From a virus, in the IMG/VR virus record IMGVR_UViG_3300023184_000101, positions 4,706 to 68,705 of that record: 64,000 bases of DNA. The stretch is one strand, 5' to 3'. The notes beneath the pieces are model-generated. The model saw only the letters and a program-made list of their open reading frames with translations. It ran no database searches and was not told the DNA's origin. Both the position numbers and the translations under genes were made by a program. Shown here one piece after another: positions 1 to 64,000 of this stretch; position 1 is the first letter of the stretch; every line of letters starts with the position of its first letter.

Positions 1-28
1 TAGTATTTATTAGTTAAATAAGAATATT

Positions 29-322
29 ATGTCATGTAGTAAATATACTCTAACAAATACAGGTTCCTCAATTGTGAACTTCAGTTATCAAAGATGCGAC
101 GACGCGATGTGGGAATATCAAGTTGAGATTAATCCAAATCAAACAAAAACAATTTGGTTATTAGACCCAACTTATTCAACAGCTTTTTCATCAAGCATTG
201 TTAAAATTGATTTGGGGGCTTTTCCTCCAACAGATAATGGTCCAACCTTAACCCCAACTCATACCCCAACACCAACAGGTACTCCTTCGGTTACTCCTAC
301 ACCAACTCCAACACGTCCTTAA
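29..322 (+). CDS. Small putative virion-associated protein with C-terminal Thr/Pro (mucin-like) tail
   Basis: 97 aa ORF with a beta-rich N-terminal part followed by PTLTPTHTPTPTGTPSVTPTPTPTRP. A TATTTAT motif lies upstream at 4-10. Confidence 0.6.
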   Translation: MSCSKYTLTNTGSSIVNFSYQRCDDAMWEYQVEINPNQTKTIWLLDPTYSTAFSSSIVKIDLGAFPPTDNGPTLTPTHTPTPTGTPSVTPTPTPTRP

Positions 323-353
323 TTTTTTTAATTAAAAATAATTTTATACATTT

Positions 354-382
354 AAACCCTATTCTTTTGGATAGGGTTTTTT
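354..382 (+). terminator. Putative intrinsic terminator
   Basis: AAACCCTAT-N8-ATAGGGTTT inverted repeat followed by T-run, downstream of ORF 29..322. Confidence 0.55.
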
Positions 383-405
383 ATTTTTAAAACAAAATAC
401 AATTA

Positions 406-1674
406 ATGAGCAAAATTTTTATTCAAATCGCATCATATAGGGACCCACAGTTAATCCCAACTTTAAAAGATATGATTGCAAATGCCAAGAAACCAAAAAA
501 TTTGGTTTTTTCAATCGCAAGACAATTCAGTGAAACCGATGGTTTCGATAACCTTGATGAATTCAGAAACGACAAAAGATTTAAAATCTTGGATATTCCT
601 TATCAAGATGCAAGAGGAGTTTGTTGGGCAAGAAATTTAACTCAACAACTATATGGTGGTGAGACTTATACAATGCAAATCGATTCTCACATGAGATTTG
701 TTAAAGATTGGGATGATATCCTGATTAAAATGATAAAGGGGTTGCAAAAGGATGGGTATAAGAAACCTCTACTTACGGGTTATGTACCTTCCTTTGACCC
801 TGATAATGACCCTGCGGGTAGAGCACAAGATGCTTGGAGAATGGCGTTTGATAGATTTATTCCTGAAGGTGCGGTATTCTTTTTACCTGAAACAATTCCT
901 GGATGGAGAGAAATGAAAAAACCTGTAACGGCAAGATTTTATTCGGCTCACTTCTGTTTCACATTAGGTGAATTTTCAAAAGAAGTTCAACACAATCCTG
1001 AATACTATTTCCATGGAGAAGAAATTTCAATCGCAGCAAGAGCTTACACTTGGGGTTATGATTTATTTCATCCTCACATTCCTGTGGTTTACCATGAATA
1101 TACTCGTAAGGGTAGAACAAAACAATGGGACGATGATAAGACTTGGGGTGACAAAAATAAACATTCACATTTAACAAATAGAAAGTTATTTGGAATGGAT
1201 GGCGAAACCCAAGAAGGTCACGATGGTCCTTATGGTTTTGGTACTGTTAGAACATTAAGAGACTATGAAAAATATTCTGGTTTGTTATTTGAAAGAAGAG
1301 CAATCGACAAACATTGTTTAGACAAACAATATCCACCAAGTCCTTATAATTTTGAAACAGAAGAAGAGTGGAAGGATAGTTTTGCAACAATATACAAACA
1401 TTGTATTGACGTTGGTTACACAAGCGTACCTGAAAAAGATTATGATTTTTGGGTGGTTGCATTTCATAATGCTAAAGATGAAACGTTACATAGAAGAGAT
1501 GCAGATAAGAATGAGATTGCTGGTTTCATGAGAGACCCTGACGGATACTGTAAAGTTTGGAGAGAATTCCAAACCACAGAATTACCAACATATTGGGTTG
1601 TTTGGCCTCACTCAGAATCAAAAGGTTGGTGTGATAGATTAACGGGTCAGTTAAACCACAACAACGTTAGTTAA
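406..1674 (+). CDS. Glycosyltransferase, GT60/Gnt1-like (polypeptide N-acetylglucosaminyltransferase, 'GlcNAc' family)
   Basis: Motifs IFIQIASYRDP, ARGVCWAR, QIDSHMRF (DxH) and YFHGEEI...AR.YT.GYD match Skp1/mucin-type polypeptide GlcNAc transferases. No signal peptide seen. Confidence 0.8.
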   Translation: MSKIFIQIASYRDPQLIPTLKDMIANAKKPKNLVFSIARQFSETDGFDNLDEFRNDKRFKILDIPYQDARGVCWARNLTQQLYGGETYTMQIDSHMRFVKDWDDILIKMIKGLQKDGYKKPLLTGYVPSFDPDNDPAGRAQDAWRMAFDRFIPEGAVFFLPETIPGWREMKKPVTARFYSAHFCFTLGEFSKEVQHNPEYYFHGEEISIAARAYTWGYDLFHPHIPVVYHEYTRKGRTKQWDDDKTWGDKNKHSHLTNRKLFGMDGETQEGHDGPYGFGTVRTLRDYEKYSGLLFERRAIDKHCLDKQYPPSPYNFETEEEWKDSFATIYKHCIDVGYTSVPEKDYDFWVVAFHNAKDETLHRRDADKNEIAGFMRDPDGYCKVWREFQTTELPTYWVVWPHSESKGWCDRLTGQLNHNNVS

Positions 1675-2417
1675 TGAAATTTAATGAAATACCAAAGTTT
1701 GTTGTTAATTTAGAAACAAGACCTGATAATCTTGAACTTATAAAAAAAGAGATGGATTATATTGGTTGGGAGTTTGAAAAGTTCAACGCGGTAAATAGAA
1801 ACAGTTATATGGGTTGTACCCTATCTCATTTGGAAATTATTAAAATTGCCAAAGAAAGGGGGTATGATAGAGTTATGGTTATTGAAGACGATTGCGTATT
1901 CATGCCATACGCCAAATCCCTTTTAGATGACATTGAAAAACAAACTGAAGGTATTGAATTTGGTGTGTTTAATATAACTCCGACTTTAAATAGGAAACTT
2001 AATCCGAGCGATAAATATGATTTATTATTAGACATTACAAATATTCCTCCAAAAGAAGAACATCATACTGAAACATTTGCAACAAATATTTTAATCTATG
2101 ATAAGTCAGTATATGACGAAATGTTTAATATTGCTTTGACCGCATTTACTGAATCAGGAGATTATTATTTTCCAATAGACGGGTACCTTGTTAAATTTAT
2201 TTATCCTAAGTTTCAAAGTTATTGTGCGGTATTACCTATTGCACCACAAAGAAATTCGTATTCTGACGTTTCTCATGGTATGTATAATAACTTCTATACT
2301 CAAACGTATAATTGGAATTTATATTCTCCCAAGAAACTTCCAAACGAATTTAAAAGTGAGCAGGAGAATGAAAAAATAAAAGAAGAAAAAAAACACATTC
2401 AATATTATGTCAGTTAA
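1674..2417 (+). CDS. Glycosyltransferase family 25
   Basis: Hallmark GT25 motifs FVVNLETRPD, GCTLSHL and VMVIEDD. TAATG overlap with the upstream gene. Confidence 0.8.
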   Translation: MKFNEIPKFVVNLETRPDNLELIKKEMDYIGWEFEKFNAVNRNSYMGCTLSHLEIIKIAKERGYDRVMVIEDDCVFMPYAKSLLDDIEKQTEGIEFGVFNITPTLNRKLNPSDKYDLLLDITNIPPKEEHHTETFATNILIYDKSVYDEMFNIALTAFTESGDYYFPIDGYLVKFIYPKFQSYCAVLPIAPQRNSYSDVSHGMYNNFYTQTYNWNLYSPKKLPNEFKSEQENEKIKEEKKHIQYYVS

Positions 2418-3288
2418 ATTTATAACATCGATTTATAGTGATTTACACGGAACAGAATTAGGTGGTAGAACAGGTAGAAATGGTCATTATAGATATAGTT
2501 TATTGTCATTATTAAAAATGACGGATGCTGATTTTTTATGTTATACGTCAGATAGAGAAATAGAATCATTAAAAGAATTTTTCTATACAGATAATAAAAT
2601 TTCAGAAGAAAAATTAAAGTTTCAAATTTTTAATATTAGTGATACTAAATTTAAAGATTTAATTAGTAAAAGAAAAAATATAGACCAAATTAAACAAGGG
2701 GATAGATGTGTTGAGATTCAATACTCTAAGTTTCATTGGTGGTGGAATGAGGATAAATCTTATGATTACTATTATTGGATTGATGCAGGATTTTCTCATT
2801 GTGGGTTAATTCCACCAAAATATTTACTTGGCGAACATCCTCAAGCAAGATATTATGAAAGTAGTTTATTTAGTAATGATTTTTTGAAAAATTTGATTGA
2901 AGATACTGGTGACAAATTTTTAATTTTAGGTAAAGAGAATGATAGGAACTATTGGTCAGGAACTGTGAACCCAAAATGGTATACTGAGTATGATAGAAGT
3001 ATTCACATTATTGGTGGTATGTTTGGTGGTCACAGAGATAAGTGGGATACTATAGTTAGTATGTTTGAAAGTTATATTGAGAATGTATTAACTGAAGATG
3101 AGGGATTACCTCACGAAGAACAAATAATGAGTTTGATGCACGTAAATCATAGAGATTTATTTGTAAGAAAACATTTTGATATATGGTGGTATAAAGGTAA
3201 CTCCCCTTCAGGAGTATCGGACGAGATGTTCGAACAAAATAAAAGTTTTTATAAAATATTAGAAGAATTTAATAGAATTTATGAGTAA
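2407..3288 (+). CDS. HtrL/YibB-like (WlaTC-type) putative glycosyltransferase
   Basis: YYWIDAG, IIGGMFGG and HEEQIMS motifs typical of the HtrL_YibB family. Lies within the GT cluster. Confidence 0.65.
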   Translation: MSVKFITSIYSDLHGTELGGRTGRNGHYRYSLLSLLKMTDADFLCYTSDREIESLKEFFYTDNKISEEKLKFQIFNISDTKFKDLISKRKNIDQIKQGDRCVEIQYSKFHWWWNEDKSYDYYYWIDAGFSHCGLIPPKYLLGEHPQARYYESSLFSNDFLKNLIEDTGDKFLILGKENDRNYWSGTVNPKWYTEYDRSIHIIGGMFGGHRDKWDTIVSMFESYIENVLTEDEGLPHEEQIMSLMHVNHRDLFVRKHFDIWWYKGNSPSGVSDEMFEQNKSFYKILEEFNRIYE

Positions 3289-4951
3289 AATAACTTTAGT
3301 AACCGGTATATGGAATATCGGTAGAGATGAATTACAGGAAGGATGGTCAAGACCATTCCAACATTATTTGGATAAATTTTCTCAATTATTAGAGGTGGAT
3401 ACCAACATGATAATTTTTGGAGAAGAAGAATTAAAAGATTTTGTCTTTAGTAAAAGAAGTAGAGAAAACACTCAATTTATTACAAGACCATTAGATTGGT
3501 TTAGAAACAATGAGTTTTTTGATATGATTCAAAAAATAAGAACTAATGAATCTTGGTCAAACCAAGTTGGTTGGTTAAAAGAATCAACACAAGCAAGATT
3601 GGAAAATTACAATCCTCTTGTAATGTCTAAAGTATTTTTACTTAACGACGCTAAAATCATGGACCAATTCAATTCGGAATATTTGTTTTGGATTGATGGT
3701 GGTTTAACAAATACCGTTCACCCTGGTTACTTTACTCACGATAAAGTTTTAGATAAATTATCTAAACATATTTCTAAATTTTCATTCATTTGTTTCCCTT
3801 ATGATGCTGAAACTGAAATTCATGGATTTGAATATAATAAATTAAATTCAATTGCTGGAGATAAGGTAACAAAAGTTGCTAGAGGTGGTTTCTTTGGTGG
3901 TCCTAAAGATTCTATTAGTGATATTAATGGAATTTACTATTCATTATTAAAGACAACCTTAGATGAGGGATATATGGGTACTGAGGAATCTATTTTCAGT
4001 ATTATGTGTTATAAACATTCTGATATTATAAATTATTTTGATATTGAATCAAATGGTTTAATTGGTAAGTTTTTTGAGGATTTAAAAAATGATACCCTTA
4101 AAACTAAAAATGAAAGTAAGGTTGTTGTAACAAATAATTTGGACACCAATAAAGTTGGTCTATATGTTATAACATTTAACAGCCCAAATCAATTTAGAAC
4201 TTTAATTAAATCAATGACTGAGTATGATAAAGATTACTTACTTAAAACTGAAAAGTTTTTATTAGATAACTCTTCTGACGAATCTACCTTTGAAGAATAC
4301 GCTAAACTTTGCGAAGAACATAACTTTACTCATATCAAAAAAGATAATTTAGGAATATGTGGTGGAAGACAATTTATTGCCGAACATTTTGATACAACAG
4401 ATTTAGATTATTATTTATTCTTTGAAGATGATATGTTTTTCTTTCCAAATGAAGGGGTTTGTAGAAATGGGTTTAATAGATATGTCCCAAACCTATACAC
4501 CAAGTCATTAGAGGTTATGAAAAAAGAAAATTTTGATTTCTTAAAACTTAATTACTCAGAATTTTACGGAGATAATGGAACCCAATGGGCTTGGTATAAT
4601 GTACCTCAACATGTTAGAGAAGAATTTTGGCCAGGTAAAAACAGATTACCTGTTCAAGGGTTAGACCCAAATGCACCAAAAACAGTTTATAGTAATGTCT
4701 TATCCCACAAAGGATTACCTTACTCAGTTGGTGAAGTTTATTACTGTAATTGGCCACAACTTGTTAGTAGACCTGGAAACCAAAAGATGTTTTTAGATGT
4801 GACATGGGCACACCCATTCGAACAAACATGGATGAGTCATATGTATCAGTTAGTTAAAAAAGAGGAATTATATCCTGGATTACTACTTTTAACCCCAACT
4901 GAACATAATAGATTCGAACATTATGACGGGGGTCTTCGTAAAGAGTCATAA
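3281..4951 (+). CDS. Two-domain glycosyltransferase: N-terminal HtrL/YibB-like plus C-terminal GT-A fold
   Basis: N-terminal ITLVTGIWNIGR, FWIDGG, RGGFFGG and GTEESIF. C-terminal LLDNSS, NLGICGGR and FFEDDM (GT2-like DxD region). Confidence 0.7.
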   Translation: MSKITLVTGIWNIGRDELQEGWSRPFQHYLDKFSQLLEVDTNMIIFGEEELKDFVFSKRSRENTQFITRPLDWFRNNEFFDMIQKIRTNESWSNQVGWLKESTQARLENYNPLVMSKVFLLNDAKIMDQFNSEYLFWIDGGLTNTVHPGYFTHDKVLDKLSKHISKFSFICFPYDAETEIHGFEYNKLNSIAGDKVTKVARGGFFGGPKDSISDINGIYYSLLKTTLDEGYMGTEESIFSIMCYKHSDIINYFDIESNGLIGKFFEDLKNDTLKTKNESKVVVTNNLDTNKVGLYVITFNSPNQFRTLIKSMTEYDKDYLLKTEKFLLDNSSDESTFEEYAKLCEEHNFTHIKKDNLGICGGRQFIAEHFDTTDLDYYLFFEDDMFFFPNEGVCRNGFNRYVPNLYTKSLEVMKKENFDFLKLNYSEFYGDNGTQWAWYNVPQHVREEFWPGKNRLPVQGLDPNAPKTVYSNVLSHKGLPYSVGEVYYCNWPQLVSRPGNQKMFLDVTWAHPFEQTWMSHMYQLVKKEELYPGLLLLTPTEHNRFEHYDGGLRKES

Positions 4952-4967
4952 CAATATATTTATTGTT

Positions 4968-5348
4968 ATGGAATTTTATATCAAGAAGAATGCGACCCTA
5001 CCTGTTTTAAAAATGCAGGTTGTTAAAGACGGAAGAGCTGGCTATATCCAACTAATGCAAGATTTGGAAGTATCGACTATTTTCTTTTCAATGGTTGATG
5101 TTTACAACGGTATTCCAAAAATTGTTTCTGCTCCGTGTTATATTGTCCCCCTTATCTTTGCAGAAGACGGGGCACCAACAGAATATTATATTTATTATCA
5201 ATTTAATGAAAGGGATACAAATACACCTGGCAGATATCAAGGTCAATTTTTAATTAAAAATGATGAGGGTAATTTAATTTTACCTATCAGAGAAGACTTG
5301 TATATTAATATCCAAGATAGTTTTATTTCTGAAACTGCGTGTTGTTAA
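4968..5348 (+). CDS. Putative structural protein (BppU/baseplate-upper-like Ig fold)
   Basis: FYIKKNATLP...YQFNERDTNTPGRYQGQF pattern. Start moved from 4923 to ATG 4968, which follows the TATTTAT motif and avoids overlap. Confidence 0.5.
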   Translation: MEFYIKKNATLPVLKMQVVKDGRAGYIQLMQDLEVSTIFFSMVDVYNGIPKIVSAPCYIVPLIFAEDGAPTEYYIYYQFNERDTNTPGRYQGQFLIKNDEGNLILPIREDLYINIQDSFISETACC

Positions 5349-5380
5349 TTTGATTAATCCAAACTAATTTTTATATTTAT
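5349..5380 (+). promoter_or_regulatory. Putative promoter of the DNA polymerase gene (TTTG-N19-TATATTTA)
   Basis: Resembles the Bacteroidota -33 TTTG / -7 TAnnTTTG architecture and contains the recurrent TATTTAT motif. Confidence 0.45.
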
Positions 5381-5438
5381 TAAAGAAGGTAAATTTCACA
5401 TATCGTGAAAGCTAATACACCACTTTAAAAAATATATT

Positions 5439-27512: not shown

Positions 27513-27835
27513 TGGCATATCCGTATTATAATCGATATAGTGAATTCATCATTAATGGTGAACAAACTGTCGTGCCATTTGTTTATATTGCTCAAAAACC
27601 TACAGACCAAACATATATTTATAAAGTTGCTAGAAGTAGATTAGATAAAGTTTCCCAAGAATTTTATAACTCTCCATATTTCAGTTGGTTGATATTACAA
27701 GCGAATCCTCAATTCGTTGGGTTAGAAGATAATATTTATGACGGTGCAGTATTGATTATTCCATTTCCGCTCATAGCTTCTTTACAGGATTATAAAGCGG
27801 CATTAGAAAATCATTTTTATTATTATGGCAGGTAA
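27512..27835 (+). CDS. Baseplate LysM-like protein (gp53/gpX-like)
   Basis: RLDKVSQEFYNSPYFSWLILQANP...GAVLIIP is the typical LysM-like wedge pattern. Confidence 0.75.
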   Translation: MAYPYYNRYSEFIINGEQTVVPFVYIAQKPTDQTYIYKVARSRLDKVSQEFYNSPYFSWLILQANPQFVGLEDNIYDGAVLIIPFPLIASLQDYKAALENHFYYYGR

Positions 27836-30800
27836 CTTACAAGCTGACAACAGCGGAAACATATTGGTGGACTTTGACTATAATAATATTATTGTAGTTG
27901 ACCCCAACAAAACGATAGATAGTTTTGGTAATGTCAAAGAAAGATTGGTTGACCATGAGAATTTGGTTATGTATGCCAATCTTGAGGCTGAAGTTGTGCC
28001 GAGAACAAAATTGTCGGTAGGAGGAAGTCCTGAAGATAGAATTAGAACAATATCAGTGGCTAAAATTAATTTTCTAAAGCCAACAAAAAACGCCTACTTA
28101 GGAACTGGATATTATGACGAATTAACAGGAAAAAATTCAACCAAGTATGAAGGAGTTAATCAACCTAAACAAACGTTAACTCAAACCGCTGATGGTAAAG
28201 AAGCCTACAAGATTAATAGTGTTGCTGACCAAACAAATGTAATTGATACAGGATTACTTGGTATGACAAGTATTAGTATTAGAACAAGTACGTCATTTAT
28301 TCCAACCGTTTCAATCAGATTGGAAGACATTCAAGGAAGAGCGTTATTTCAATTAGGGAATAATTCTCCATACTCCGCTTTTTTTAATTTACCATATTGT
28401 CCTTTCTATTTGACACTTAAAGGATATTATGGACAAGCAATTAGATATCAATTAAATCTTGAAAAATTTTCAGCGTCGTTTAATCAAGCGGGTGGAAGTT
28501 ATATTGTGGATTTAGAATTTAAAGGATACAAATTCAATATCTTAAATGAAATTTCTTTTGGTCATTTACTTGCGGCACCGCATATGTACTCCCAAAGATT
28601 TCAAATTACTCAATCTCCAACCGAAGGTCAAAATGCCAATGAACAAAAAGACGCGTCTTTAGCGGGTAAAACCGGTGCTGGAACTACAAGTACAAATAAT
28701 GTAACATCAGAAATAGTTGCGGAAAGAGGTTATCAAAAAGTTGCTGAACTTTATAGTGAATATAAAGCCAAAGGATTAGTTGCTAGGGATTTTCCAGAAT
28801 TGACGGTTCAACAATTAATGAATAAGTTAGATAATTTTGAACAAGCCATTGTTAATTCTTATCAAAAAGCCAACGTTGAACCACTTACAAACATTCGAAA
28901 TTATCAACAAAAACTTAAAGAGTATTTTGCAAATGTAAGAGGTGAAAATACTTCATGGTTCAATACATATTGTGATGTCAGACCGATTTATTTAAATAAT
29001 AAACCGGAGGTTGTTTATGCGTATAAAGCCAATTTAGACCAAGCGGCAATATCTGAGGCAAATACTAAACTATCTGATTTGGTTGCAAGATATAATTTAG
29101 GATTAGCTGAAAACCCAACATTAGGAAAGGCCGGAACCTCACCAATTCCGAACCCAATTAAGTATGATGACTTTTTTAAAACGGTTGTGGGGAGTGATGT
29201 TGATTGGGTGGAAACAACAAGGTCACAAACCGGTATTATTGCACCCACAACTGGAGATACAGAATTGGTTAAAACTACGTTGTCAAAATTCTTTAAAGTG
29301 TCGTTTGAAACAGATATTAACTCTAATTTAGCCCTACCCGTGCCTAAAAAAATTGTGTTACCACAATTTATTGTTTTTGAGGGTGACAAACATTTTGACA
29401 AAAGTCTTGCCAATATGGAAACTTTGGCAAGTGCAAAACTTGCTGAGATTGAGGGTTTATTGTCGGCGGATTTGGCTAGAAAGATAGAGGACAAGGCAAC
29501 GGGTTTAGGTTTTAAACCTACGGTAAGAAATATTATTGCGGTTTTAATGGCTTCTTCGGAAGCGTTTATTAGATTGTTAGATGATGTTCATACTAATGCT
29601 TGGAATGTAAAATATGACCCGATTAGAAAAAATGCCATATTAGATAATCCATCATCAGCTCGAAGCTCTGATGGTAGAGATGATGTTAAAATATCTGCAG
29701 ATGCACAACAATCAAACCAAGGGTTGTCCACGGCTCAAATACCGGTTTACCCGTGGCCTCAATTTTTTGTTGAAACACCTGAAGATAAAAAAGGAAGATT
29801 CCAATTAAAATATATTGCCGACCCGTCCGTTGTTAATTCAACAAAAGGTTATTTGTATGATAAATGGCCTGAGGTAGAATTTGTTGAGGAATACATGAAA
29901 GGGTTAACACAAAAGTTTCAAAATCCATTAAGTCAGCCATCATTAGGTGCGGAGTCAAAAACAATAATAACTAACGTAAATGGAATTGAATTTCCAAATG
30001 CGGGAATTGCCTACGTAAACAAAGAAGAAATAAAGTTTTTTTATGAAATTTGGGAAAGACAATATCTTACATCTTTTTATTCAGGTTATGTCAGAATATT
30101 GGGTAACAACAATGGAAGTGATGTGTTCAGTGATTATGCAATGTCTGCCGAATCTCAAAACATAAAATTAAGTTTAGGTGCGAGCTCACCATACTTAAAT
30201 CTAAAACTGAAGAACTTAAATTTAAACTCTACCAATTATGTTAGTACGTTAGAAACAATTTCAAATCAGGGAACAGGTAGAGCTTATCAAGATTTTATTA
30301 GAGATTTTTATGTGACACCATATATTAAAACTTTGACCGAATCTCCGTTCTCAATCTTAAATTTAAATGAGACTGGCAAAATTCCGGAACAACCAATAGT
30401 ATCTGAAGCACTTCAACAAATTATAAAATCACCATACAACACTCCGATGTTATTGGACACTTATCCGTTTACAGATGGAAAGTGGTGTTTTAATAATATG
30501 GATAACTCGGCCGCAAATACAAATGAGTTAGTCTATAATACAAACAAAACATATAAAATTTACTCAGAGAATAAGGTTATTGCGAACTTCGATACTTTAA
30601 CAGACTATACAACAAACAGACCTGTAACAAACTTTTCTTATTTGAATGTAAGTAATCCCTCAGACGGGCGTACCAATGGTAACTTAAATGAATTCTATAG
30701 AACTAGAATAACAACAGAATTCATACCAACGGAAGGTTATTGTTATTTTCCATCACCTGACACCACCTTTGAAATTAGAACAACAACCTCAATATTGAAT

Positions 30801-33800
30801 ACACCGTATTTTGTAAATGCAATTCAGAACGGCGTGAATAATTCAAGAAAGTCGGACCCATATCCTTATGTTCAGGCGGCTTATTTGTTCATTAATTCAT
30901 TACCATTAGCGTCTACAAGAGAAAGATACAAAACATATTCACAAGGACAAACTAGTGAGTTGGATTATATTGCTTCAGTGTTTAAAAAATTTGGTGCAAT
31001 ACATAAAGTACCATATGCTTGGGTTTTAAAAATGGGTTCTATCTGGCATAGATATAAAAAGCATGTCGAAACAAACGTAGATATTTTGGATTCATGTTGG
31101 AAAGAGTTTGATTATGCTGTTAACTACGACCCAATAACAAATGACGTAAACCATCAATATAGTTATGAAACTACTGTTCAAGGGATAAAACCCCCAACAC
31201 AAAAAATTGTTTTACAAGATGAAACCTCAACAAGTATTAAAATACAGAGCGGTTTTTATCCTAAGTTAGTTAATGACTTCAACGTTTTTTATAATGGATA
31301 TGAATTATATCAAAATTATACTAACGAAGAAATACAGGCTAGTTTAAATAATGGAATGAAATTATTTTCATTAAAAGAAGGTTCTATTTCAGGTGTAAAA
31401 CAAAAAACAAAAGACCTTATAGTTGAACCCTTTAGTGTGGTTATTCCACATTTAATTGATGATTCATCTAAAAATCAATCTGTTTGTGTGCCAGCAAATA
31501 ATACTAAAGGTGGTGAGTATTATGTAATACCATCATATGGAACTACTTTGAGTCAAACAGCGGCACAGTGTGTTAATACAATAGGTAGTACCATAGTTGA
31601 TTTAACATACAACCAATCAATGTATAATGGTAGTGTTAGATTATTATGGGCGGCACCAAACTATGGATATTTTGATTCATTATCAATTCGTAAACCATCG
31701 CCAGATTCTTATTTAAATTATATTAATCCATTAAGTGCAATACAAGCTCCGATGAGATTATACTCGGGAGATACGTATTCTAAAATTGAAGAGATTTTCT
31801 CTGTGTTTGATAAATCAATTCTGAATCAATTTGAACAAGAGTTTTTAAATTTTTGTAAACCAATTAATACATTAGACGCCGCATTATCAGTGGTCGGAAT
31901 TGGACAAAGCCCAATTGACTTAAATGCTGGATTTAAAAACTTCCAATCGTTTATGAGGACCGCAATGACAGTTCCGGCACAAGCGGCCTCTGAAGATAAC
32001 GTACAATATTTTAAAAACACTATCAATAACCAAGCTCAAGTTTTTTGTTCAAACATAAAGAACTTCATGGAGTATGATGTTATTTTAAGAAATGGTAACC
32101 CTGGAAATTACAATAGAAGAATATTCGGTTCTTTCCTTGGTACCGCAACTGACCCAATTCCATACGAACCGTATGTTAAAAACAGTTTACCAACATCAGG
32201 TGGCGGAATAACCTTGTCACAAAGTAAGGCAAAGTATCCACTTGAATGGGCGGCATTACAAACAAATATAGGGTTCTCAACAATCATCAATTTAGAATAT
32301 ACGGATAAAGGTTCTTATATTACAGACTTCTTTGTTGATAACAATATGTTATTTAGTGTACCAAACATCACATTATATTCTGAGTTAATAAAAGTATACG
32401 CAACAAGAAAACTATTAAATCCAACAATAACAACAGGAAATTTTAAAACACAAATACAAAACTTTATTTCTGACGGTACTAACATACAAAACATAGTTTT
32501 AAACAAAACATTGGAATCACTTAGAAAAAATTTAGATGATTATTCCCAATTACCCGAGAGAACAATTCAATCAGTTATTGATGGACAACAATCTAAAGTT
32601 GAAAACTATGAAGTATTTAAAGCACTTAACGATAAGTGGGTTGCTGGTGGTGACTATAAAACAAAAACATTGTTTGAAGATATGATGTTCTTAGACAGAG
32701 CATCAAGAAATATTGGAGATACAATTATTATTGACATATTTGACCTACAAACAATGTTGGGTAAAAATGCCTATAACGAGGCAATGAGTGTCTTCACACT
32801 TATAAGTGGAATTTTAATTAAAAATAATTTTAATGTAATGCCTCTTCCGGCCTATGTTAACTTTTATAATGTACAAGATGTTTCTGGGATTAATATACCA
32901 CAAAAATCTGAAGGTTCACTTGAGTTTGCGAATAGTATGTGGGGGACTTATTTAAATGTTGACTATAGAAACTCAGGTCCAAAAATGGTTTGTTTCTATG
33001 CGGGTAAACCATCACAATATTTGGATTTACCAAAAGGTAATTTTAGATTTAGAGATGATAGTTTTGATATGAAAAGGGCATCTGAAAATCCATTAATTGA
33101 GGACTTAAAAGATAAAAAAGATTATGGATTATCAAACAGATGTGTCGGGTTCAACGTAGAGATAGGGATAAGAAATCAAAATGTATTTAAAGATTTTTCA
33201 GTTTCACAAGAGGCGGGAAAGGCAACTTCTGAAACAATAAACGCTCAGTTAAATATGATTGACCAAGCTTCTGGTAGAAATGTTACAACTCAAAATGTAA
33301 GTTTGTATAATTTGTATAAAAACAGAAGTTATAAATGTAGTGTAACTTGTTTGGGTAATGCAATGTTACAACCTACAATGTATTTTAATGTACAACATGT
33401 ACCAATGTTTAATGGGCCGTATTTAATTCAGGAGGTTACACACACCATAGCGGCGGGAACCTTTGAAACACAGTTTACAGGTGTAAGACAAGGTATTTTT
33501 GATTTACCTGCAATTGATAATTTCTTACAGAGTATCAATAAAAATCTCTTAAGTAAAATTGAACAAGCGGTTCTTAATAAAAAAGACGCAACACCGGCGA
33601 TTGGTGCAACAACAGACCAAGCTAAGGCTTCTAAAATCATACAAGAAGCTAAGAGTACTTTACAAGCTCAAAACGCTTGTAAGAACAAATTAAGTCCTAT
33701 TTATACAGAACAAGGTTGGGAATCAGCAACAGCGAAATCAACACCACTTTCACCACAAGAATTTAAAGACGCTATCGTAAGTAAAACATCTGACTTATAT

Positions 33801-35171
33801 CTTCAAACAATAATATATTCTTTATGTTATGTTAGGGCATATCAAGGAACTAAAGATAAAGGTTCTTTTGTTGGGTTCAATAATAACTTTGCAACCGTAA
33901 CTTTAGATTTGGATTACGGAAATAATAACACATATTTCAATCAACAACCAAGAACGTATTCTTGTGTGGATGTTCAATCAGGAACCGCAACCAAAGTTGA
34001 GAATGTATTGCCTATTGCTAATTTCTCAGATGTAAATAAGTTTTTGGATTTTATGATTTCTAAATTGAATGCAAACGTCCAAAGAATTACGCAAATTGGA
34101 TTACCAAAATATTATGTTTGTTATTGGCCAACAACAAACTTTACCGAACAATATTATGATACTAAAGCGACCACAGAATTTAAAGAAGTTAATGCCAATT
34201 TCGAAAGGGCGATTAAATCTGCAGTAAGCTTAGGATTATCTGATTTAGAAGGTGTTTATGAGCCACAACCTACACCAACAATTTCTGCGACAATAGGGTC
34301 AACACCAACAGCAACTAGCTCGGTTACACCTACACCAACACCTACTAAAGGAACAATACCTCCACCAACACCTACACCAACTCCTTGTGAAAAACCTGTT
34401 ATTACTTCGTTCACGCCAACTTCAGGTGGTTACAACACTATTTTAACTATCACAGGAAAATATTTACAATCAACACTTCAAATCATTATAAATAACGTTT
34501 CTGTAGATAAAGGTTTCACTGTTTCAAGCGATGGAACACAACTTACTGTTACAGTACCTGAGGCAAGATTAATTGGTGTATTAATTAATTCTATAACTGT
34601 AAAAACTCAGAATGGGGATGTTACAAGCACTGAAAAATTCATTTACAATCCGGCAATCAAAATGCCGATTTCTCCTGCACGACCATTGAATTTAACGATG
34701 GCAAGCACACAAACACAAATAAAAGATACTGAAAAACAAAGTTCTACATTTTATGATGGGCTAACAGGACCAAAAGTACTAACTGAAAAAATTGTAACAC
34801 TTCCAACAGGAACCATGCAAAATATATCAGTTAAGGTAAATACCGATGTTGGAATATGGTCGATAACTGACAGTGTGAATATACAGTTACAATTATTTGG
34901 GTACGATGTAGGACCAAACAATTCAATTAATAAAGTATTAATCAAAGAACAGGGATTCACAGAAACAGGTTTAGTTTCAACTAATAGACAATCGTTCTTT
35001 ATCGATGCCACTGATATTGATGACTTGATAAAAAACAGTGGTAAATTCACTGCTGATGAAATTAAAAAAACTAAGGAAATACTCGGAAGAGTGTCCTTAA
35101 CAACAATACCGGCGGACAAAAATAAACAACAAATAAATTCAACATATAACTTCAAAATCTTGATGGTTTAA
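27825..35171 (+). CDS. Very large baseplate hub-like protein with Thr/Pro linker and C-terminal IPT/TIG domain
   Basis: Hub-like segment SYKCSVTCLGNAMLQPTMYF...GPYLIQEVTHTI...FETQFTGVR. A TPTPTP linker is followed by PVITSFTPTSGG...LTITG (IPT/TIG). Confidence 0.6.
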   Translation: MAGNLQADNSGNILVDFDYNNIIVVDPNKTIDSFGNVKERLVDHENLVMYANLEAEVVPRTKLSVGGSPEDRIRTISVAKINFLKPTKNAYLGTGYYDELTGKNSTKYEGVNQPKQTLTQTADGKEAYKINSVADQTNVIDTGLLGMTSISIRTSTSFIPTVSIRLEDIQGRALFQLGNNSPYSAFFNLPYCPFYLTLKGYYGQAIRYQLNLEKFSASFNQAGGSYIVDLEFKGYKFNILNEISFGHLLAAPHMYSQRFQITQSPTEGQNANEQKDASLAGKTGAGTTSTNNVTSEIVAERGYQKVAELYSEYKAKGLVARDFPELTVQQLMNKLDNFEQAIVNSYQKANVEPLTNIRNYQQKLKEYFANVRGENTSWFNTYCDVRPIYLNNKPEVVYAYKANLDQAAISEANTKLSDLVARYNLGLAENPTLGKAGTSPIPNPIKYDDFFKTVVGSDVDWVETTRSQTGIIAPTTGDTELVKTTLSKFFKVSFETDINSNLALPVPKKIVLPQFIVFEGDKHFDKSLANMETLASAKLAEIEGLLSADLARKIEDKATGLGFKPTVRNIIAVLMASSEAFIRLLDDVHTNAWNVKYDPIRKNAILDNPSSARSSDGRDDVKISADAQQSNQGLSTAQIPVYPWPQFFVETPEDKKGRFQLKYIADPSVVNSTKGYLYDKWPEVEFVEEYMKGLTQKFQNPLSQPSLGAESKTIITNVNGIEFPNAGIAYVNKEEIKFFYEIWERQYLTSFYSGYVRILGNNNGSDVFSDYAMSAESQNIKLSLGASSPYLNLKLKNLNLNSTNYVSTLETISNQGTGRAYQDFIRDFYVTPYIKTLTESPFSILNLNETGKIPEQPIVSEALQQIIKSPYNTPMLLDTYPFTDGKWCFNNMDNSAANTNELVYNTNKTYKIYSENKVIANFDTLTDYTTNRPVTNFSYLNVSNPSDGRTNGNLNEFYRTRITTEFIPTEGYCYFPSPDTTFEIRTTTSILNTPYFVNAIQNGVNNSRKSDPYPYVQAAYLFINSLPLASTRERYKTYSQGQTSELDYIASVFKKFGAIHKVPYAWVLKMGSIWHRYKKHVETNVDILDSCWKEFDYAVNYDPITNDVNHQYSYETTVQGIKPPTQKIVLQDETSTSIKIQSGFYPKLVNDFNVFYNGYELYQNYTNEEIQASLNNGMKLFSLKEGSISGVKQKTKDLIVEPFSVVIPHLIDDSSKNQSVCVPANNTKGGEYYVIPSYGTTLSQTAAQCVNTIGSTIVDLTYNQSMYNGSVRLLWAAPNYGYFDSLSIRKPSPDSYLNYINPLSAIQAPMRLYSGDTYSKIEEIFSVFDKSILNQFEQEFLNFCKPINTLDAALSVVGIGQSPIDLNAGFKNFQSFMRTAMTVPAQAASEDNVQYFKNTINNQAQVFCSNIKNFMEYDVILRNGNPGNYNRRIFGSFLGTATDPIPYEPYVKNSLPTSGGGITLSQSKAKYPLEWAALQTNIGFSTIINLEYTDKGSYITDFFVDNNMLFSVPNITLYSELIKVYATRKLLNPTITTGNFKTQIQNFISDGTNIQNIVLNKTLESLRKNLDDYSQLPERTIQSVIDGQQSKVENYEVFKALNDKWVAGGDYKTKTLFEDMMFLDRASRNIGDTIIIDIFDLQTMLGKNAYNEAMSVFTLISGILIKNNFNVMPLPAYVNFYNVQDVSGINIPQKSEGSLEFANSMWGTYLNVDYRNSGPKMVCFYAGKPSQYLDLPKGNFRFRDDSFDMKRASENPLIEDLKDKKDYGLSNRCVGFNVEIGIRNQNVFKDFSVSQEAGKATSETINAQLNMIDQASGRNVTTQNVSLYNLYKNRSYKCSVTCLGNAMLQPTMYFNVQHVPMFNGPYLIQEVTHTIAAGTFETQFTGVRQGIFDLPAIDNFLQSINKNLLSKIEQAVLNKKDATPAIGATTDQAKASKIIQEAKSTLQAQNACKNKLSPIYTEQGWESATAKSTPLSPQEFKDAIVSKTSDLYLQTIIYSLCYVRAYQGTKDKGSFVGFNNNFATVTLDLDYGNNNTYFNQQPRTYSCVDVQSGTATKVENVLPIANFSDVNKFLDFMISKLNANVQRITQIGLPKYYVCYWPTTNFTEQYYDTKATTEFKEVNANFERAIKSAVSLGLSDLEGVYEPQPTPTISATIGSTPTATSSVTPTPTPTKGTIPPPTPTPTPCEKPVITSFTPTSGGYNTILTITGKYLQSTLQIIINNVSVDKGFTVSSDGTQLTVTVPEARLIGVLINSITVKTQNGDVTSTEKFIYNPAIKMPISPARPLNLTMASTQTQIKDTEKQSSTFYDGLTGPKVLTEKIVTLPTGTMQNISVKVNTDVGIWSITDSVNIQLQLFGYDVGPNNSINKVLIKEQGFTETGLVSTNRQSFFIDATDIDDLIKNSGKFTADEIKKTKEILGRVSLTTIPADKNKQQINSTYNFKILMV

Positions 35172-60671: not shown

Positions 60672-62462
60672 ATGTCAACTTATTCCATAATTGTAACCAA
60701 TAATGCTCCTGGCTGTAATAACGAAGTCGCTCAACAACTATCTGTTTCTGGCTGTTCAACTTATATTGTAAGATTAGCATCAACTTCTAATGCAATTGGA
60801 CCTTTCAATGTTTATATTGATTCAATTCTAACTACTCCTGTTTACTCCGCACAAACAAGAACTGAAATGTTAAATGGTGTTGTTGTAACATTTGATTGTG
60901 CAACGCCAACGCCGACTCCAACACCTTCAGAAACTTCTGCTGCTACAACGCCAACACAGACTCCTACCAATACTGCAACTCCTACCAATACTGCAAGTAA
61001 TACACTTACACCTACACCAACAATTACTCAAACACAAACTCCTACCAATACTGCAAGTGATACACCAACACCTACACCAACGATTACTCAAACACAAACT
61101 CCAACACCAAGTGTGACCGCAGGATTAACACCAACTGCAACTGAAACTCAAACTGCGACTCCAACAAATACACCAACAAATACACCAACTAATACAGAAA
61201 CGCCAACAAACACTCCGAGTAATACTCCAACAAATACTGAAACTCCAACAAATACTCCAAGTGAAACACCAACAAACACTCCAACCAATACTATAACCAA
61301 CACTCCAACTAATACTGAAACCCCAACAAATACTCCGACTGAAACGCAAACTCCGACTCCAAGTGTAACTGCTGGACAAACTCCGACTGCAACCGAAACA
61401 CAAACTCCGACCCCAACTAATACGCCTTCAGTAACTCCTACTAATACAGAAACGCCAACAAACACTCCAACAAACACACCAACTAATACAGAGACACCAA
61501 CTAATACACCTAGCGAAACTCCAACCAACACTCCTAGCGAAACTCCAACTAATACACCAACCGAAACGCCAACTAATACTCCAACTCAAACTGAAACTCC
61601 TACACAAACACCAACACCTTCTATCACTGCATCTCAAACTGAAACTCCTACGCAAACACCGACAAATACTCCAAGTGATACTCCAACAAGTACTCCAACA
61701 GAAACACCAACACAAACACCGACAGTTACGACAACAGACACACCAACAATGACGCCTACTAGCACTTCAACACAAACACCGACAGTTACAACAACAGACA
61801 CACCTACACAAACTCCAACAATGACCGCAACACAAACTGCGACAGTAACACAAACCCCTTCACCAACACCAACAAGAGCTCCATTAATGGCTTACATATT
61901 CATGGACCAAGGTTCACCAGCACCAAGAAATGATTTAAGTGCTTGGATGCAAGCAAATCAAGGGGCAATCACTCCACAATTCAGAGGATTTAACGTTGCA
62001 GGATTCTCAGTACCGTCTACAGGACAAACCAACTTTGATACTCAGATGAATGCATTCATTAGTTACTCAGGATGGAATAATTACGAACCTTCAATTCTTA
62101 CGGCACCAATATCTACAACATCTGGTGGTAATGACGCATTTGGTAACCCTATTGTGGCATATACTTTCCAAACAACACAAATACCTATCGGACAATTCTC
62201 GGCAACAAGTTGGGTTATTATATTTGTATCGACGGGAGCAACAAATGGATTGAAATACTCAACAATCAAAAACGGTACTTCGCCAGGAGCAATGGTCTCA
62301 AGAGTTATGAATACAACATATAATAGTTTAATTGTAAACTATTCTGGAAGCACAAATATGCCAGCTGGAACGTATAGAATGTATTCTACTTATAATGGAA
62401 CATCATTCCAATTATCAACAGGATTCTTACCTAACTATTTCCAAGGAGGAACGTTGGTTTAA
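60672..62462 (+). CDS. Mucin-like Thr/Pro-rich protein (putative virion decoration or fibre)
   Basis: Globular N- and C-terminal parts joined by about 325 aa of TPT[N/E/Q] repeats. Confidence 0.75.
60900..61880 (+). repeat. Coding Thr-Pro tandem repeat region
   Basis: Degenerate 12-nt (TPTN) and longer units, including a near-perfect ~60 nt duplication around 60978-61100. Confidence 0.85.
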
Positions 62463-62517: not shown

Positions 62518-64000
62518 ATGAGTTTTGATTATAAAAATCCCACATCAGACACCGTAGTTGCAGGTCCTTTTTCGGTAGAAAGGAGTTCGGATACAGGTGT
62601 CAATTTTAGTGTAAATACTGTTGGAGGTTATATGGAAGTATGGAACCTTTCAGATTTAGACTGGACAATCCCTACTGACATCTATGAAGGTGGTGGACAA
62701 GTACTATATTCTGGAAATAGTATTCCTATAAGCTTTATTTGTGGGGGATATGTGCCATATAGTCCACCGGTAATCAACCAATTGAATTTATTTAATGATG
62801 GTATTTCTTCGGGTAGAAGAAGACTTGGTATGCAAGTTTTTGTTCAAGAAACGGGTGAAGTTTATCAATATACAATACCAAACTATGCATCATTATGGAA
62901 TATAGCGGAGTTAGACGGTGATATTACTCAATTAGACTATGGTTATCAAGTTTTAAATATTGGAGCTGGTGGGACTGCTCTTATGAACGCTTGGACTGGG
63001 TCAACAATTGAAGGAGTTAGTGGTGTGACAAGAGAAAATGCGAGATGGAGAATCTTTCACGGAGATGATATTCAAATAACAGGGGGTACTTATTATTCTG
63101 CAACAACAACTTTAGATTTATTTAACAATACTGGGGGTACAATATCAATCACAGGGTTTACAGGTACCGTAACAGGAGGGACATATAATAGTGGAAGTTC
63201 AACTTTAACTTTAAATAATAGTGATGGTACTGAGGTATCAATCACAGGTATTACTTCAGGGTCAGGTTCAGCCTTATCCGTTGGAGATGGTACAACAACG
63301 GTAAATCCTGTATCAGGAATTACATTCAATGGCGCAACGGTAACTGATAATGGTAGTGGTAATATTACAGTAACAATAACAGGTGGAACTTCAGGTTCAT
63401 CAGGAACGGATGGTAGCTCAGGCTCATCGGGAACTTCTGGTTCATCAGGAACAGATGGTAGCTCAGGCTCATCGGGAACTTCAGGCTCATCAGGAACGGA
63501 TGGTAGCTCAGGTTCATCAGGAACGGATGGTAGCTCAGGCTCATCGGGAACTTCAGGTTCATCAGGAACGGATGGTAGTTCAGGTTCATCAGGAACTTCA
63601 GGTTCATCAGGAACGGATGGTAGCTCAGGCTCATCGGGAACTTCAGGCTCATCAGGAACAGATGGTAGTTCAGGTTCTTCGGGAACAAGTGGTAGCTCGG
63701 GAACATCAGGAATAAGTGGTGTTGATGGTACGGACGGTAGCTCAGGTTCTTCAGGAACAAGTGGTAGTTCAGGTTCTTCAGGAACGGATGGTAGCTCAGG
63801 TTCTTCAGGAACGGATGGTAGCTCAGGCTCATCGGGAACTTCAGGTTCTTCAGGAACGGATGGTAGTTCAGGTTCATCAGGAACTTCAGGTTCATCAGGA
63901 ACGGATGGTAGCTCAGGCTCATCGGGAACTTCTGGTTCATCAGGAACAGATGGTAGCTCAGGCTCATCGGGAACTTCAGGCTCATCAGGAACGGATGGTA
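62518..64000 (+). CDS. Collagen-like (Gly-X-Y) fibre protein, 3' truncated by window end; missing from the ORF track
   Basis: ATG at 62518 (MSFDYKNPTSD...GRRRLGMQVFVQET...) with the frame open to the window end. From 63385 it is continuous GSS/GTS/GTD triplets. Confidence 0.85.
   Translation, partial: MSFDYKNPTSDTVVAGPFSVERSSDTGVNFSVNTVGGYMEVWNLSDLDWTIPTDIYEGGGQVLYSGNSIPISFICGGYVPYSPPVINQLNLFNDGISSGRRRLGMQVFVQETGEVYQYTIPNYASLWNIAELDGDITQLDYGYQVLNIGAGGTALMNAWTGSTIEGVSGVTRENARWRIFHGDDIQITGGTYYSATTTLDLFNNTGGTISITGFTGTVTGGTYNSGSSTLTLNNSDGTEVSITGITSGSGSALSVGDGTTTVNPVSGITFNGATVTDNGSGNITVTITGGTSGSSGTDGSSGSSGTSGSSGTDGSSGSSGTSGSSGTDGSSGSSGTDGSSGSSGTSGSSGTDGSSGSSGTSGSSGTDGSSGSSGTSGSSGTDGSSGSSGTSGSSGTSGISGVDGTDGSSGSSGTSGSSGSSGTDGSSGSSGTDGSSGSSGTSGSSGTDGSSGSSGTSGSSGTDGSSGSSGTSGSSGTDGSSGSSGTSGSSGTDG
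63385..64000 (+). repeat. Gly-X-Y coding tandem repeat (9-nt units such as GGTTCATCA, GGAACGGAT, GGTAGCTCA)
   Basis: About 68 consecutive Gly-X-Y triplets visible in the window. Confidence 0.9.

Follow-up and report, generated by a model that had tools for sequence, protein, structure and literature searches.

The window analysed here, a 64,000-nt stretch of one viral record, comes from a phage that is probably a freshwater jumbo myovirus with a host probably among the Bacteroidota. Positions 406-4951 of the plus strand carry four overlapping glycosyltransferase-type genes, encoding successively a GT60-family protein (PF11397), a GT25-family protein, an HtrL-like protein and a fusion of an HtrL domain to a GT-A-like domain. 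Successive genes share 1, 11 and 8 nt at their junctions, export signals are absent, and no TM-like segment was detected in any of the enzymes (maximal Kyte-Doolittle 19-aa mean ≤0.99). The first-pass annotation had described four coupled glycosyltransferase-like genes without signal peptides, a description borne out by the open reading frames, the overlaps, the profile matches and the hydropathy. Downstream, the enzyme operon continues into PolB, a replication gene. Upstream lies a gene for a 97-aa protein (29..322, plus strand) made of a 65-aa Cys-containing N-terminal domain and a 27-aa Thr/Pro tail (residues 71-97). Its adjacency and its tail, noted previously, are real, but a terminator-like hairpin (354..379, plus strand; a T run follows its 11-bp stem) separates this small Thr-Pro (TP)-tail gene from the enzyme genes, so that the two are neighbours and probably not part of one transcript. 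Terminator-like sites are not enriched region-wide (4 found versus 3.6 expected).

Profile comparisons agreed with the families initially assigned: PF11397, PF01755 and PF09612 were matched, and 2407-3288 was recognised as HtrL-like via hhalign only. The first enzyme (406..1674, plus strand; 422 aa) matched PF11397 with an E-value of 1.5e-66 (225.7 bits, cut-off 21) in a Pfam profile search and phrog_24687 over its full length (E 2.3e-164). It carries the DxH motif replacing DxD and the downstream metal-binding His common to GT27 enzymes, followed by a C-terminal domain of ~125 aa; within D93-S-H95, D93 and H95 are invariant in 15/15 homologues, and H230 is found in at least 90%. The DxH motif and the His are also aligned in the best PDB profile match, the polypeptide GalNAc-transferase 6s22 (E 0.037). 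Dictyostelium Gnt1 is a GT60 polypeptide alpha-GlcNAc transferase. The DxH motif and a polypeptide O-glycosylation mode are common to GT27 and GT60, and GlcNAc-alpha-O-Thr on mucin-like proteins is the product of the characterised GT60 enzymes. We propose that 406-1674 encodes a putative priming enzyme that would transfer HexNAc onto Thr/Ser. We know of no prokaryotic or phage GT60 for which glycan, donor or acceptor has been demonstrated, and full-text literature searches returned no study of what GT60 enzymes do in phages or bacteria.

The second enzyme (1674..2417, plus strand; 247 aa) matched the GT25 family (PF01755; E 8.8e-11, 42.5 bits, cut-off 24), with a best stretch limited to residues 46-116 and weak PDB sequence matches to Mimivirus R655 (E 0.004) and procollagen galactosyltransferase 1 (E ~0.1). 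It is proposed as a putative extending enzyme and occupies the variable slot of the cluster: no GT25 homologue was found in 8/80 related IMG/VR loci, and GT34-like, GT2 or methyltransferase genes take its place in some relatives. As the middle genes vary between relatives, the glycan probably varies too. The stand-alone HtrL-like protein (2407..3288, plus strand; 293 aa), which contains WIDxG and GGxFGG motifs, gave no match in Pfam, PHROG and NCBIfam searches; its profile aligned with the HtrL domain of the following protein with a probability of 96.7% (E 3.4e-10). Among its neighbours in the atlas are an HtrL_YibB cluster with PF09612 in 51% of its members and another cluster dominated by Nucleocytoviricota. 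The last enzyme (3281..4951, plus strand; 556 aa) has two domains. Residues 3-252 matched PF09612 (HtrL_YibB; E 1.9e-17, 64.2 bits, cut-off 24.1), as did 14/14 homologues. The 556-aa protein has this domain in common with E. coli YibB but is not its orthologue, scoring 71.2 bits with the TIGR02192 equivalog profile (cut-off 264.9). The 'GT-A' label of the C-terminal GT-A/GT2-like domain (residues ~285-556) is drawn from weak signals only, namely phrog_842 (beta-glucosyl-HMC alpha-glucosyltransferase; E 1.2e-5 over 82 residues), GT2 in 1/14 and TAGT in 2/14 homologues (E 0.004), and an invariant FEDD motif.

In the complete relative G001, the N-terminus of a 672-aa protein with multiple TP linkers shares 63% identity with the N-terminal domain encoded by 29-322, and homologues of the small protein are present in 68/80 related IMG/VR loci; the small protein is a short representative of a family whose longer proteins have several TP linkers each. 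The cassette is directly preceded by four TP-linker genes, three of them outside the window. A 126-aa protein (4968..5348, plus strand; likely start Met16 of the ORF 4923-5348) is 60% identical over 122 aa to L379:15116-16402, a 428-aa TP-linker protein of a relative with two TP tracts that is headed by the domain of the 126-aa protein. The Ser/Thr-rich regions reported farther along the window were confirmed. The 2448-aa giant protein of the baseplate region (27825..35171, plus strand), a candidate substrate, contains a Cys-flanked TP linker at nt 34284-34391. A comparable Cys-flanked TP tract lies close to the C-terminus of the 3313-aa giant protein of phage XacN1 (a likeness of the tracts themselves), and the RsoM2USA homologue of this XacN1 protein stops just short of the tract. 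Another candidate substrate is a mucin-like protein of 596 aa (60672..62462, plus strand), composed of a 75-aa N-domain, a region of ~310 aa and a 200-aa C-domain; its nt 60897-61826 region is 45% Thr and 20% Pro, and Pro is the commonest neighbour of Thr on either side. Finally, a collagen-like tail-fibre protein (62518..63999, plus strand; open at the window end), a possible substrate, displays (GSS/GTD/GTS)n repeats from ~63380 to the window end, where it matched PF01391 (E 3.1e-30); tail-fibre PHROGs were also matched.

The GT60 (46% identity), HtrL-like (32%) and HtrL+GT-A (43%) genes recur as a cluster in the jumbo phages XacN1, Xoo-sp13 and RAS14, whose PolB is barely alignable with that of the window (26% over 156 aa). 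In XacN1, ORF334 is the GT60 homologue, ORF332 aligns with the HtrL-like protein (32%, E 9e-28) and ORF330 with the 556-aa protein over its full length (43%, E 4e-168); the XacN1 cluster adds a carbamoyltransferase and is without GT25. ORFs with S/T/P tracts number 16/938 in XacN1, 13/689 in RAS14 and 9/475 in G001, as against 0/678 in Serratia phage BF and 0/654 in RsoM2USA, the outgroup closest to the XacN1 group, in which no PF11397 and no HtrL+GT-A match was found. The strict TPTxTPTxTPT DNA pattern occurs 22 times in G001, 7 in XacN1, 6 in Xoo-sp13 and 0 in RAS14; each of six GT60-negative jumbo phages has 0, and a reversed-pattern control gave 0 everywhere. XacN1 virions contain at least two glycoproteins, for which the authors suggest that ORF328 or ORF334 is responsible, and these two are the only ORFs annotated as transferases in that paper (PMC5852040). 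TP-linker ORFs, which we looked for, go unmentioned in the text of that paper that was searched.

In IMG/VR, PF11397 was detected in 15/47 contigs sampled by a TP-repeat pattern and in 0/39 sampled by a random 14-mer (Fisher p 7e-5). Many of the 32/47 TP-pattern contigs without PF11397 are fragments. Among the records of this sample that are at least 90% complete, PF11397 is absent in 6/10, and genuine TP-linker ORFs were found in all five of these six that were checked. One of the 15 positive contigs (G042) is a false TP match, caused by a (VG)n repeat read on the opposite strand, and at least 9/15 belong to the window's wider lineage, with GT60s 60-87% identical (G006 left out); with the 4 distant positives only, the association has a p of 0.12. 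The predicted co-occurrence of GT60 and TP repeats across phages is partly supported by the IMG/VR counts and by XacN1 and RAS14 versus RsoM2USA, but five near-complete TP phages lack PF11397 and the association is not obligatory.

The same pairing was encountered in bacteria. GT60 and HtrL+GT-A, sometimes fused, adjoin TP-rich proteins in several phyla: HtrL+GT-A lies beside GT60 in 38/77 bacterial GT60 loci, and a TP-rich ORF lies within 600 bp of the module in 14/77, the comparison flank holding 5 TP-rich ORFs in 412 kb lying >3 kb from the module. The island of the isolate Jiulongibacter sediminis comprises UDP-sugar enzymes, a GT60-like protein, a TP protein, a GT60, a carbamoyltransferase and an FkbM-HtrL-GT-A protein, and in a Vicinamibacterales MAG three TP proteins are followed by a GT60-HtrL fusion in one 1184-aa protein. 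A scan of four bacterial loci revealed no polysaccharide polymerase, flippase or ligase family, the constant non-enzyme partner being the TP-rich protein. Some module-adjacent TP-rich proteins carry Tat-like leaders or T9SS tails. A crude rule of RR plus a hydrophobic stretch selected 8/22 TP-rich ORFs versus 36/1099 other ORFs; among 12 bacterial proteins, none exceeded the cut-off of 16.7 for the twin-arginine signal TIGR01409, the best (2/12) reaching 14.0 and 11.8 bits. In a quick ML tree, phage GT60s take three separate positions among the bacterial ones. These observations lead us to a tentative suggestion, which we hold with less than even confidence: GT60 and HtrL+GT-A could be the core components of a 'mucin-type' system, undescribed but widespread among prokaryotes, for cytoplasmic O-glycosylation of TP repeats, in which bacteria would export TP-rich surface proteins already glycosylated through Tat-like leaders or T9SS tails, and which jumbo phages would have captured at least three times for linkers of their own particle proteins.

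For the window itself, these comparisons, and comparisons only, make protein O-glycosylation the best supported reading. We consider it probable that 406-4951 is a cytoplasmic module that would add sugars to the Thr-Pro 'mucin-like' linkers of the phage's own particle proteins. The GT60, a DxH retaining-type relative of the mucin-type polypeptide HexNAc transferases, would add the first HexNAc, probably GlcNAc, to Thr/Ser of TP linkers in 'beads-on-a-string' particle or fibre proteins, and the GT25, the HtrL-like protein and the HtrL+GT-A enzyme would extend or decorate this first sugar. The earlier idea that GT60 primes and the others extend draws support from the co-occurrence, from the neighbourhoods in distant phages and bacteria and from the XacN1 glycoproteins, but is weakened by the association not being obligatory. 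What we observe is the family membership of the enzymes, their lack of export signals, the presence of TP-linker proteins and a recurrent pairing of enzymes with TP proteins in phages and bacteria; what we infer is which residues accept the glycan, which sugar is donated, in what order the enzymes act and a benefit that may lie in protease resistance, linker stiffening, adhesion or shielding.

A few actinobacteriophages and giant viruses are known to glycosylate their particles with enzymes of their own, and the glycan linkages of the giant viruses differ from the one proposed here. Full-text literature searches returned no paper on mucin-like O-glycosylated phage virions. A close parallel lies in the protist GT60 alpha-GlcNAc transferases (T. 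cruzi TcOGNT1/2; Dictyostelium GntB/Gnt1), which have the Pfam/CAZy family and the DxH in common with 406-1674. The T. cruzi TcOGNT acceptors are Thr-rich mucin-like repeats, and in T. cruzi Gal is subsequently added to the first GlcNAc, which parallels the GT25 partner of the window cassette. TcOGNT1 is a eukaryotic protein of the Golgi, whereas the window GT60, whose activity is predicted, is soluble and phage-encoded, has an additional C-terminal domain of ~125 aa and is accompanied by HtrL-type enzymes, which are not known from the protist pathways. Mycobacteriophage transferases reportedly modify structural proteins of the phage in the cytoplasm (Freeman et al. 2023, as cited in PMC12619734; PMC11256854), and an HtrL/YibB protein is annotated near the glycosyltransferases of an F1-cluster phage; there, enzymes other than GT60 place the glycans at the C-termini of capsid and tail-tube subunits, whereas the acceptors proposed here are long internal TP linkers in fibre or decoration proteins of jumbo phages infecting Gram-negative hosts. 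Chloroviruses and mimiviruses encode cytoplasmic glycosylation of capsid or fibril proteins (PMC4691112), but have eukaryotic hosts and no TP-linker logic. The 'Moraphages', large freshwater phages with a predicted Bacteroidota host and four putative glycosyltransferase orthogroups in their core genome, are possibly the same or a related lineage as the window phage; their description leaves the function of these enzymes between DNA, serotype and virion (PMC12619734).

The enzymes could instead remodel the host envelope, modifying a surface glycan such as the LOS/LPS core or the capsule, which could serve to block superinfection or change receptors, with the TP proteins as unrelated neighbours. 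GT25 is an 'LPS biosynthesis' family, HtrL_YibB occurs in Acinetobacter LOS outer-core loci and is called LOS-associated in enterics and Campylobacter, a comparative jumbo-phage study reads cyanophage glycosyltransferase clusters as outer-polysaccharide diversification, and core-type transferases need no signal peptide either. We nevertheless find envelope remodelling improbable, though it retains some weight: the conserved core is GT60 with HtrL+GT-A and not GT25, for which 8/80 related loci yielded no homologue, the four scanned bacterial loci combine a constant TP-rich protein with no polymerase, flippase or ligase family found, and presence of the module goes with TP-linker content in the phages compared, LPS being common to all their hosts. 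Quite improbable, in our view, is a role on host proteins, other phage proteins or a free or lipid-linked glycan, with TP linkers as plain flexible spacers; the five checked TP-linker phages without GT60 fit it, but it gives no reason why, in phages as in bacteria, the module and TP-rich proteins should repeatedly lie side by side and be lost together.

A DNA-sugar role for the cassette is unlikely. In the window the operon runs directly up to PolB, in XacN1 and Xoo-sp13 the genes for DNA polymerase and RNase H are found ~5 kb upstream of the cluster, and the C-terminal domain of the 556-aa protein bears a faint profile likeness to the T-even/TET-associated DNA base glycosyltransferases, which are GT-A-type enzymes encoded near replication genes; but matches to TAGT and T4 alpha/beta-GT fall below family thresholds. 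Unlike in those systems, no hydroxymethyl-base source (TS-family hydroxymethylase, TET/JBP) was found in complete relatives: a single thymidylate-synthase-family gene is present in each of five complete genomes (G001-G003, XacN1, Xoo-sp13), that of G001 scoring as a canonical ThyA (TIGR03284, 302.8 bits, cut-off 108; Asn kept in LPFNIASY), and Tet_JBP matched 0/5, in a search whose control genomes were equally silent. The XacN1 annotation lists DHFR, dCMP deaminase and dNMP kinase, and XacN1 DNA is cleaved by BssHII, NaeI and SpeI (PMC5852040). With the GT60 and HtrL+GT-A pair moreover chromosomal in many bacteria and adjoining TP-rich proteins, glycosylation of modified phage bases against restriction is very improbable. 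The first-pass annotation had itself named host LPS and phage DNA as alternatives; the comparisons weaken both, yet both retain some probability given the faint DNA-base glycosyltransferase likeness and the LOS association of two of the four families.

If protein O-glycosylation is the correct reading, known virion glycosylation would come to include a mucin-like form, based on GT60, in abundant jumbo phages of freshwater and of plant pathogens; this would explain the many Thr-Pro linkers in their fibre and decoration proteins and would bear on particle stability, adhesion and shielding from antibodies or proteases. The bacterial cassette of TP-rich protein, GT60 and HtrL+GT-A raises the question of the export route of a cytoplasmically glycosylated protein. 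It also suggests a function that can be tested for the HtrL/YibB family, as yet uncharacterised; a prokaryotic mucin-type system, if true, would be the first function for this orphan family.

The source record (IMG/VR IMGVR_UViG_3300023184_000101) is a 68.7-kb viral contig, of which the window takes bases 4706-68705, and family matches (sheath, tube, baseplate, PolB, gp32-like SSB, UvsX-like recombinase and class II RNR) identify it as a myovirus. Its IMG/VR relatives are as long as 317-326 kb, and terminal repeats are present in one of them, so that the contig represents only part of a jumbo phage genome. Megablast of window positions 1-8300 against phages returned no match. Three giant ORFs of 1682, 2448 and 1568 aa (22464-27512, 27825-35171 and 45898-50604) in the baseplate/tail region match no Pfam or PHROG family. 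A 512-aa ORF on the minus strand (9703-11241) contains a complete Fe/Mn superoxide dismutase (residues 36-226; PF00081 and PF02777, E 1e-23 and 1e-39) with about 285 further residues beyond it, and is a phage-encoded superoxide dismutase fusion.

Four ORFs at 406-1674, 1674-2417, 2407-3288 and 3281-4951 overlap by 1, 11 and 8 nt. The first belongs to GT60 (PF11397, E 1.5e-66) and the second to GT25 (PF01755, E 8.8e-11). For the third, no family matched directly; in a profile comparison with hhalign, it aligned with the HtrL domain of the fourth (probability 96.7%). The fourth combines an HtrL_YibB domain (E 1.9e-17) with a C-terminal domain (here GT-A) that has an invariant FEDD motif and gives only weak GT2, TAGT and phrog_842 signals. 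No hydrophobic segment was found in any of the four enzymes, and a single-sequence PDB search gave no match for three of them. The ORFs, their overlaps and the family and profile matches confirm the four coupled glycosyltransferase-like genes reported in the first-pass annotation, and the Ser/Thr-rich regions that it named are indeed present in the window sequence.

Three more proteins with long Thr-Pro (TP) linkers are encoded in the 4.7 kb that precede the window; one of these proteins has at least 976 aa and two Laminin_G_3 domains. The TP-tail gene at 29-322 encodes a short version of a family that is represented in the complete relative G001 by a homologue with 672 aa and five TP tracts. 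In a relative, the counterpart of the gene 3' of the enzymes (probable start 4968) forms the beginning of a 428-aa TP-linker protein. The enzyme operon is therefore embedded in a TP-linker gene block; a terminator-like hairpin at 354-379 parts it from the upstream TP-tail gene, and the operon continues towards PolB. It should be noted that matches of window proteins to phrog_15511 cover the TP low-complexity region only and were rejected as evidence of homology. A Cys is found just before the linker (...DCATPTPTP, ...VCPTPTPT) in most TP-linker proteins of the contig, of G001, of the IMG/VR record G024, of the fetched locus L379 and of phage XacN1, and on both sides of the linker in the giant ones.

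Among 50,697 phage records, only XacN1, Xoo-sp13, CM1 and RAS14 have a GT60 homologue, and only these four a full-length HtrL+GT-A homologue. Judged from their proteins, the XacN1-type phages are only remotely related to that of the window (PolB aligns over no more than 156 residues, at 26% identity); in the same comparison, GT60 and HtrL+GT-A show 46% and 43% end-to-end identity. The order in the XacN1, Xoo-sp13 and RAS14 loci is GT60, a Nol-like carbamoyltransferase, an HtrL-like gene, sometimes another ORF, then HtrL+GT-A; XacN1 ORF331 was rejected as a GT25 homologue. IMG/VR holds 365 GT60 relatives, and the best 80 of these 365 loci contain HtrL+GT-A (79), HtrL-like (74), GT25 (72) and TP-tail family (68) genes. 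The middle of the cluster is variable, with GT34-like, GT2 and FkbM methyltransferase genes found there in other relatives. In some phages (loci L059, L381 and L385), the HtrL+GT-A enzyme has an N-terminal extension of about 230 aa (777-790 aa in all). Synechococcus phages B3, B23 and DSL-LC02, without GT60, match the HtrL domain only over its initial ~143 residues (27-32% identity). A distant GT60-like gene (29% identical) in the IMG/VR record G042 (locus L390, 9701-12937) lies directly 3' of the gene for a fibre-like protein (735 aa), which has long (VG)n repeats and whose C-terminal region may be Hint/intein-like.

GT60 presence was compared with TP-linker content across phages. ORFs with a 20-aa window of at least 75% S/T/P number 9 of 475 in G001, 16 of 938 in XacN1 and 13 of 689 in RAS14, all with GT60, versus 0/678 in Serratia phage BF and 0/654 in RsoM2USA, both without it; the window contig, counted without the extra Pro/Ser-Thr minimum used for the others, has GT60 and 6 of 52. 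RsoM2USA, the nearest outgroup of the XacN1 group (PolB 36%), has neither PF11397 nor an HtrL+GT-A match, and its homologue of the 3313-aa giant protein of XacN1 ends right before the TP linker of the latter. The strict DNA pattern for TPTxTPTxTPT matched 22 times in G001, 7 times in XacN1 and 6 times in Xoo-sp13; it had no match in any of six GT60-negative jumbo phages, nor in RAS14, which marks it as insensitive, and the reversed-pattern control gave none in all genomes.

A longer TP pattern detected at least 80 loci in IMG/VR, from which one locus was taken for each of 50 contigs with a length of 20 kb or more, setting aside the final six loci and all shorter contigs; 47 of the 50 contigs were compared. 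PF11397 was present in 15 of these 47 versus none of 39 contigs of the same minimum length obtained with an arbitrary 14-mer (Fisher p 7e-5). Nine of the 14 fetched positives are kin of the window phage, with GT60 60-87% identical to its own, and p is 0.12 when only the four distant true positives are counted. G042 was rejected as a true TP positive, its (VG)n repeat having been read on the other strand. In the distant positive G024, the GT60 gene (36% identical) is flanked by an SprB/TP-linker protein, a Laminin_G_3 protein and another TP-linker protein. PF11397 is absent from 6 of the 10 TP-pattern records that are at least 90% complete, and five of those six hold genuine TP-linker ORFs, so that TP linkers do not require GT60. 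In five TP-linker phages without GT60, a search for HtrL gave no match, control genomes being silent too.

In a quick ML tree of GT60 (79 rows, SH-aLRT support only), the window lineage lies beside Saprospiraceae and Lewinellaceae sequences, the XacN1 group apart from it with a Verrucomicrobia MAG and Oxalobacteraceae, and G024 inside Verrucomicrobiota, therefore giving three phage placements. Some of the 'bacterial' rows, on short MAG contigs, may be phage DNA themselves. A 710-aa window protein (58082-60214) contains the SprB repeat in four copies (PF13573, E 2e-31) and also gives a Hoc-like head-decoration match; the repeats point to a Bacteroidota host, in agreement with the tree.

Taken together, these comparisons make protein O-glycosylation, as suggested in the first-pass annotation, the best-supported reading of the enzyme cluster and a probable one, with the reservation that GT60 is dispensable for TP linkers. 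Remodelling of host LOS/LPS by these enzymes is harder to dismiss than an action on DNA because GT25 and HtrL are LOS-locus families, but it gives no reason to expect their pairing with TP-rich proteins and appears unlikely. DNA glycosylation requires a hydroxymethylated base. That the cluster glycosylates modified bases of phage DNA is highly improbable. In its favour, the C-terminal domain of 3281-4951 faintly resembles TAGT and phrog_842, although a generic GT2-like GT-A domain would be expected to do so as well. Against it, five complete genomes (G001-G003, XacN1 and Xoo-sp13) each have one thymidylate-synthase-family gene, that of G001 passing the ThyA equivalog model and keeping the dUMP-specifying Asn, Tet_JBP was found in none of the five (search controls were silent as well), DHFR, dCMP deaminase and dNMP kinase are annotated in XacN1, and XacN1 DNA is cleavable by BssHII, NaeI and SpeI (PMC5852040). 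The G001 thymidylate synthase (locus L087, 1486-2580) has 364 aa, about 100 residues above typical ThyA, owing to two insertions.

Regarding protein O-glycosylation, virus-encoded glycosylation of virion proteins and mucin-type priming by GT60 are already known, and the module described here would be a variant of these. XacN1 virions are reported to contain at least two glycoproteins, for which the authors suggest the phage's own transferases as makers (PMC5852040); the text of that paper makes no mention of the TP-linker ORFs. Freshwater 'moraphages', with predicted Bacteroidota hosts, have four glycosyltransferase orthogroups in their core genome, the role of which was left open in the 2025 paper (PMC12619734). 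The known activity of GT60 and its kinship with GT27 are described in the literature, whereas full-text searches turned up no publication on GT60 from either phages or bacteria.

Bacterial counterparts were sought in one genome per GTDB species, which gave 567 relatives, 77 loci being kept. HtrL+GT-A is also encoded in 38 of these, and an ORF with an S/T/P tract of at least 60 residues lies within 600 bp of the module in 14; only 5 such ORFs occur in 412 kb of bacterial flank more than 3 kb away. The isolate Jiulongibacter sediminis carries an island of, in this order, UDP-glucose dehydrogenase, epimerase, a second GT60-like, TP-rich protein, GT60, carbamoyltransferase and FkbM-HtrL-GT-A fusion genes, with unrelated genes at either side; the core of this island recurs in an Arcticibacterium MAG. 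FkbM-HtrL, GT60, HtrL+GT-A and a TP protein occur together in a Verrucomicrobia MAG, and a Vicinamibacterales MAG encodes a GT60-HtrL fusion (one 1184-aa protein) after three TP-rich proteins. No polysaccharide export, polymerase or ligase families were found in these four loci. In the bacterial loci L463 and L474, the HtrL domain is preceded in the same protein by an FkbM methyltransferase, with a GT-A-like domain too in L463; such fusions hint at methylated sugars. Just upstream of the cassette in the Arcticibacterium MAG (locus L483, 422-5676) are three tandem Peptidase_S74 (endosialidase chaperone) proteins, a domain typical of trimeric fibres.

Unlike the phage TP proteins, bacterial ones carry leaders: a crude twin-arginine rule selects 8 of 22, versus 36 of 1099 other ORFs and none of 41 phage TP ORFs. 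The curated Tat model (NCBIfam) scored below threshold in 2 of 12 proteins (14.0 and 11.8 bits for a cut-off of 16.7), and the Pfam TAT_signal model gave no match on the bacterial TP proteins. One of them has a T9SS sorting domain above cut-off, and others have Fn3 or LamG domains. The bacterial cassette is a more novel lead than the phage module.
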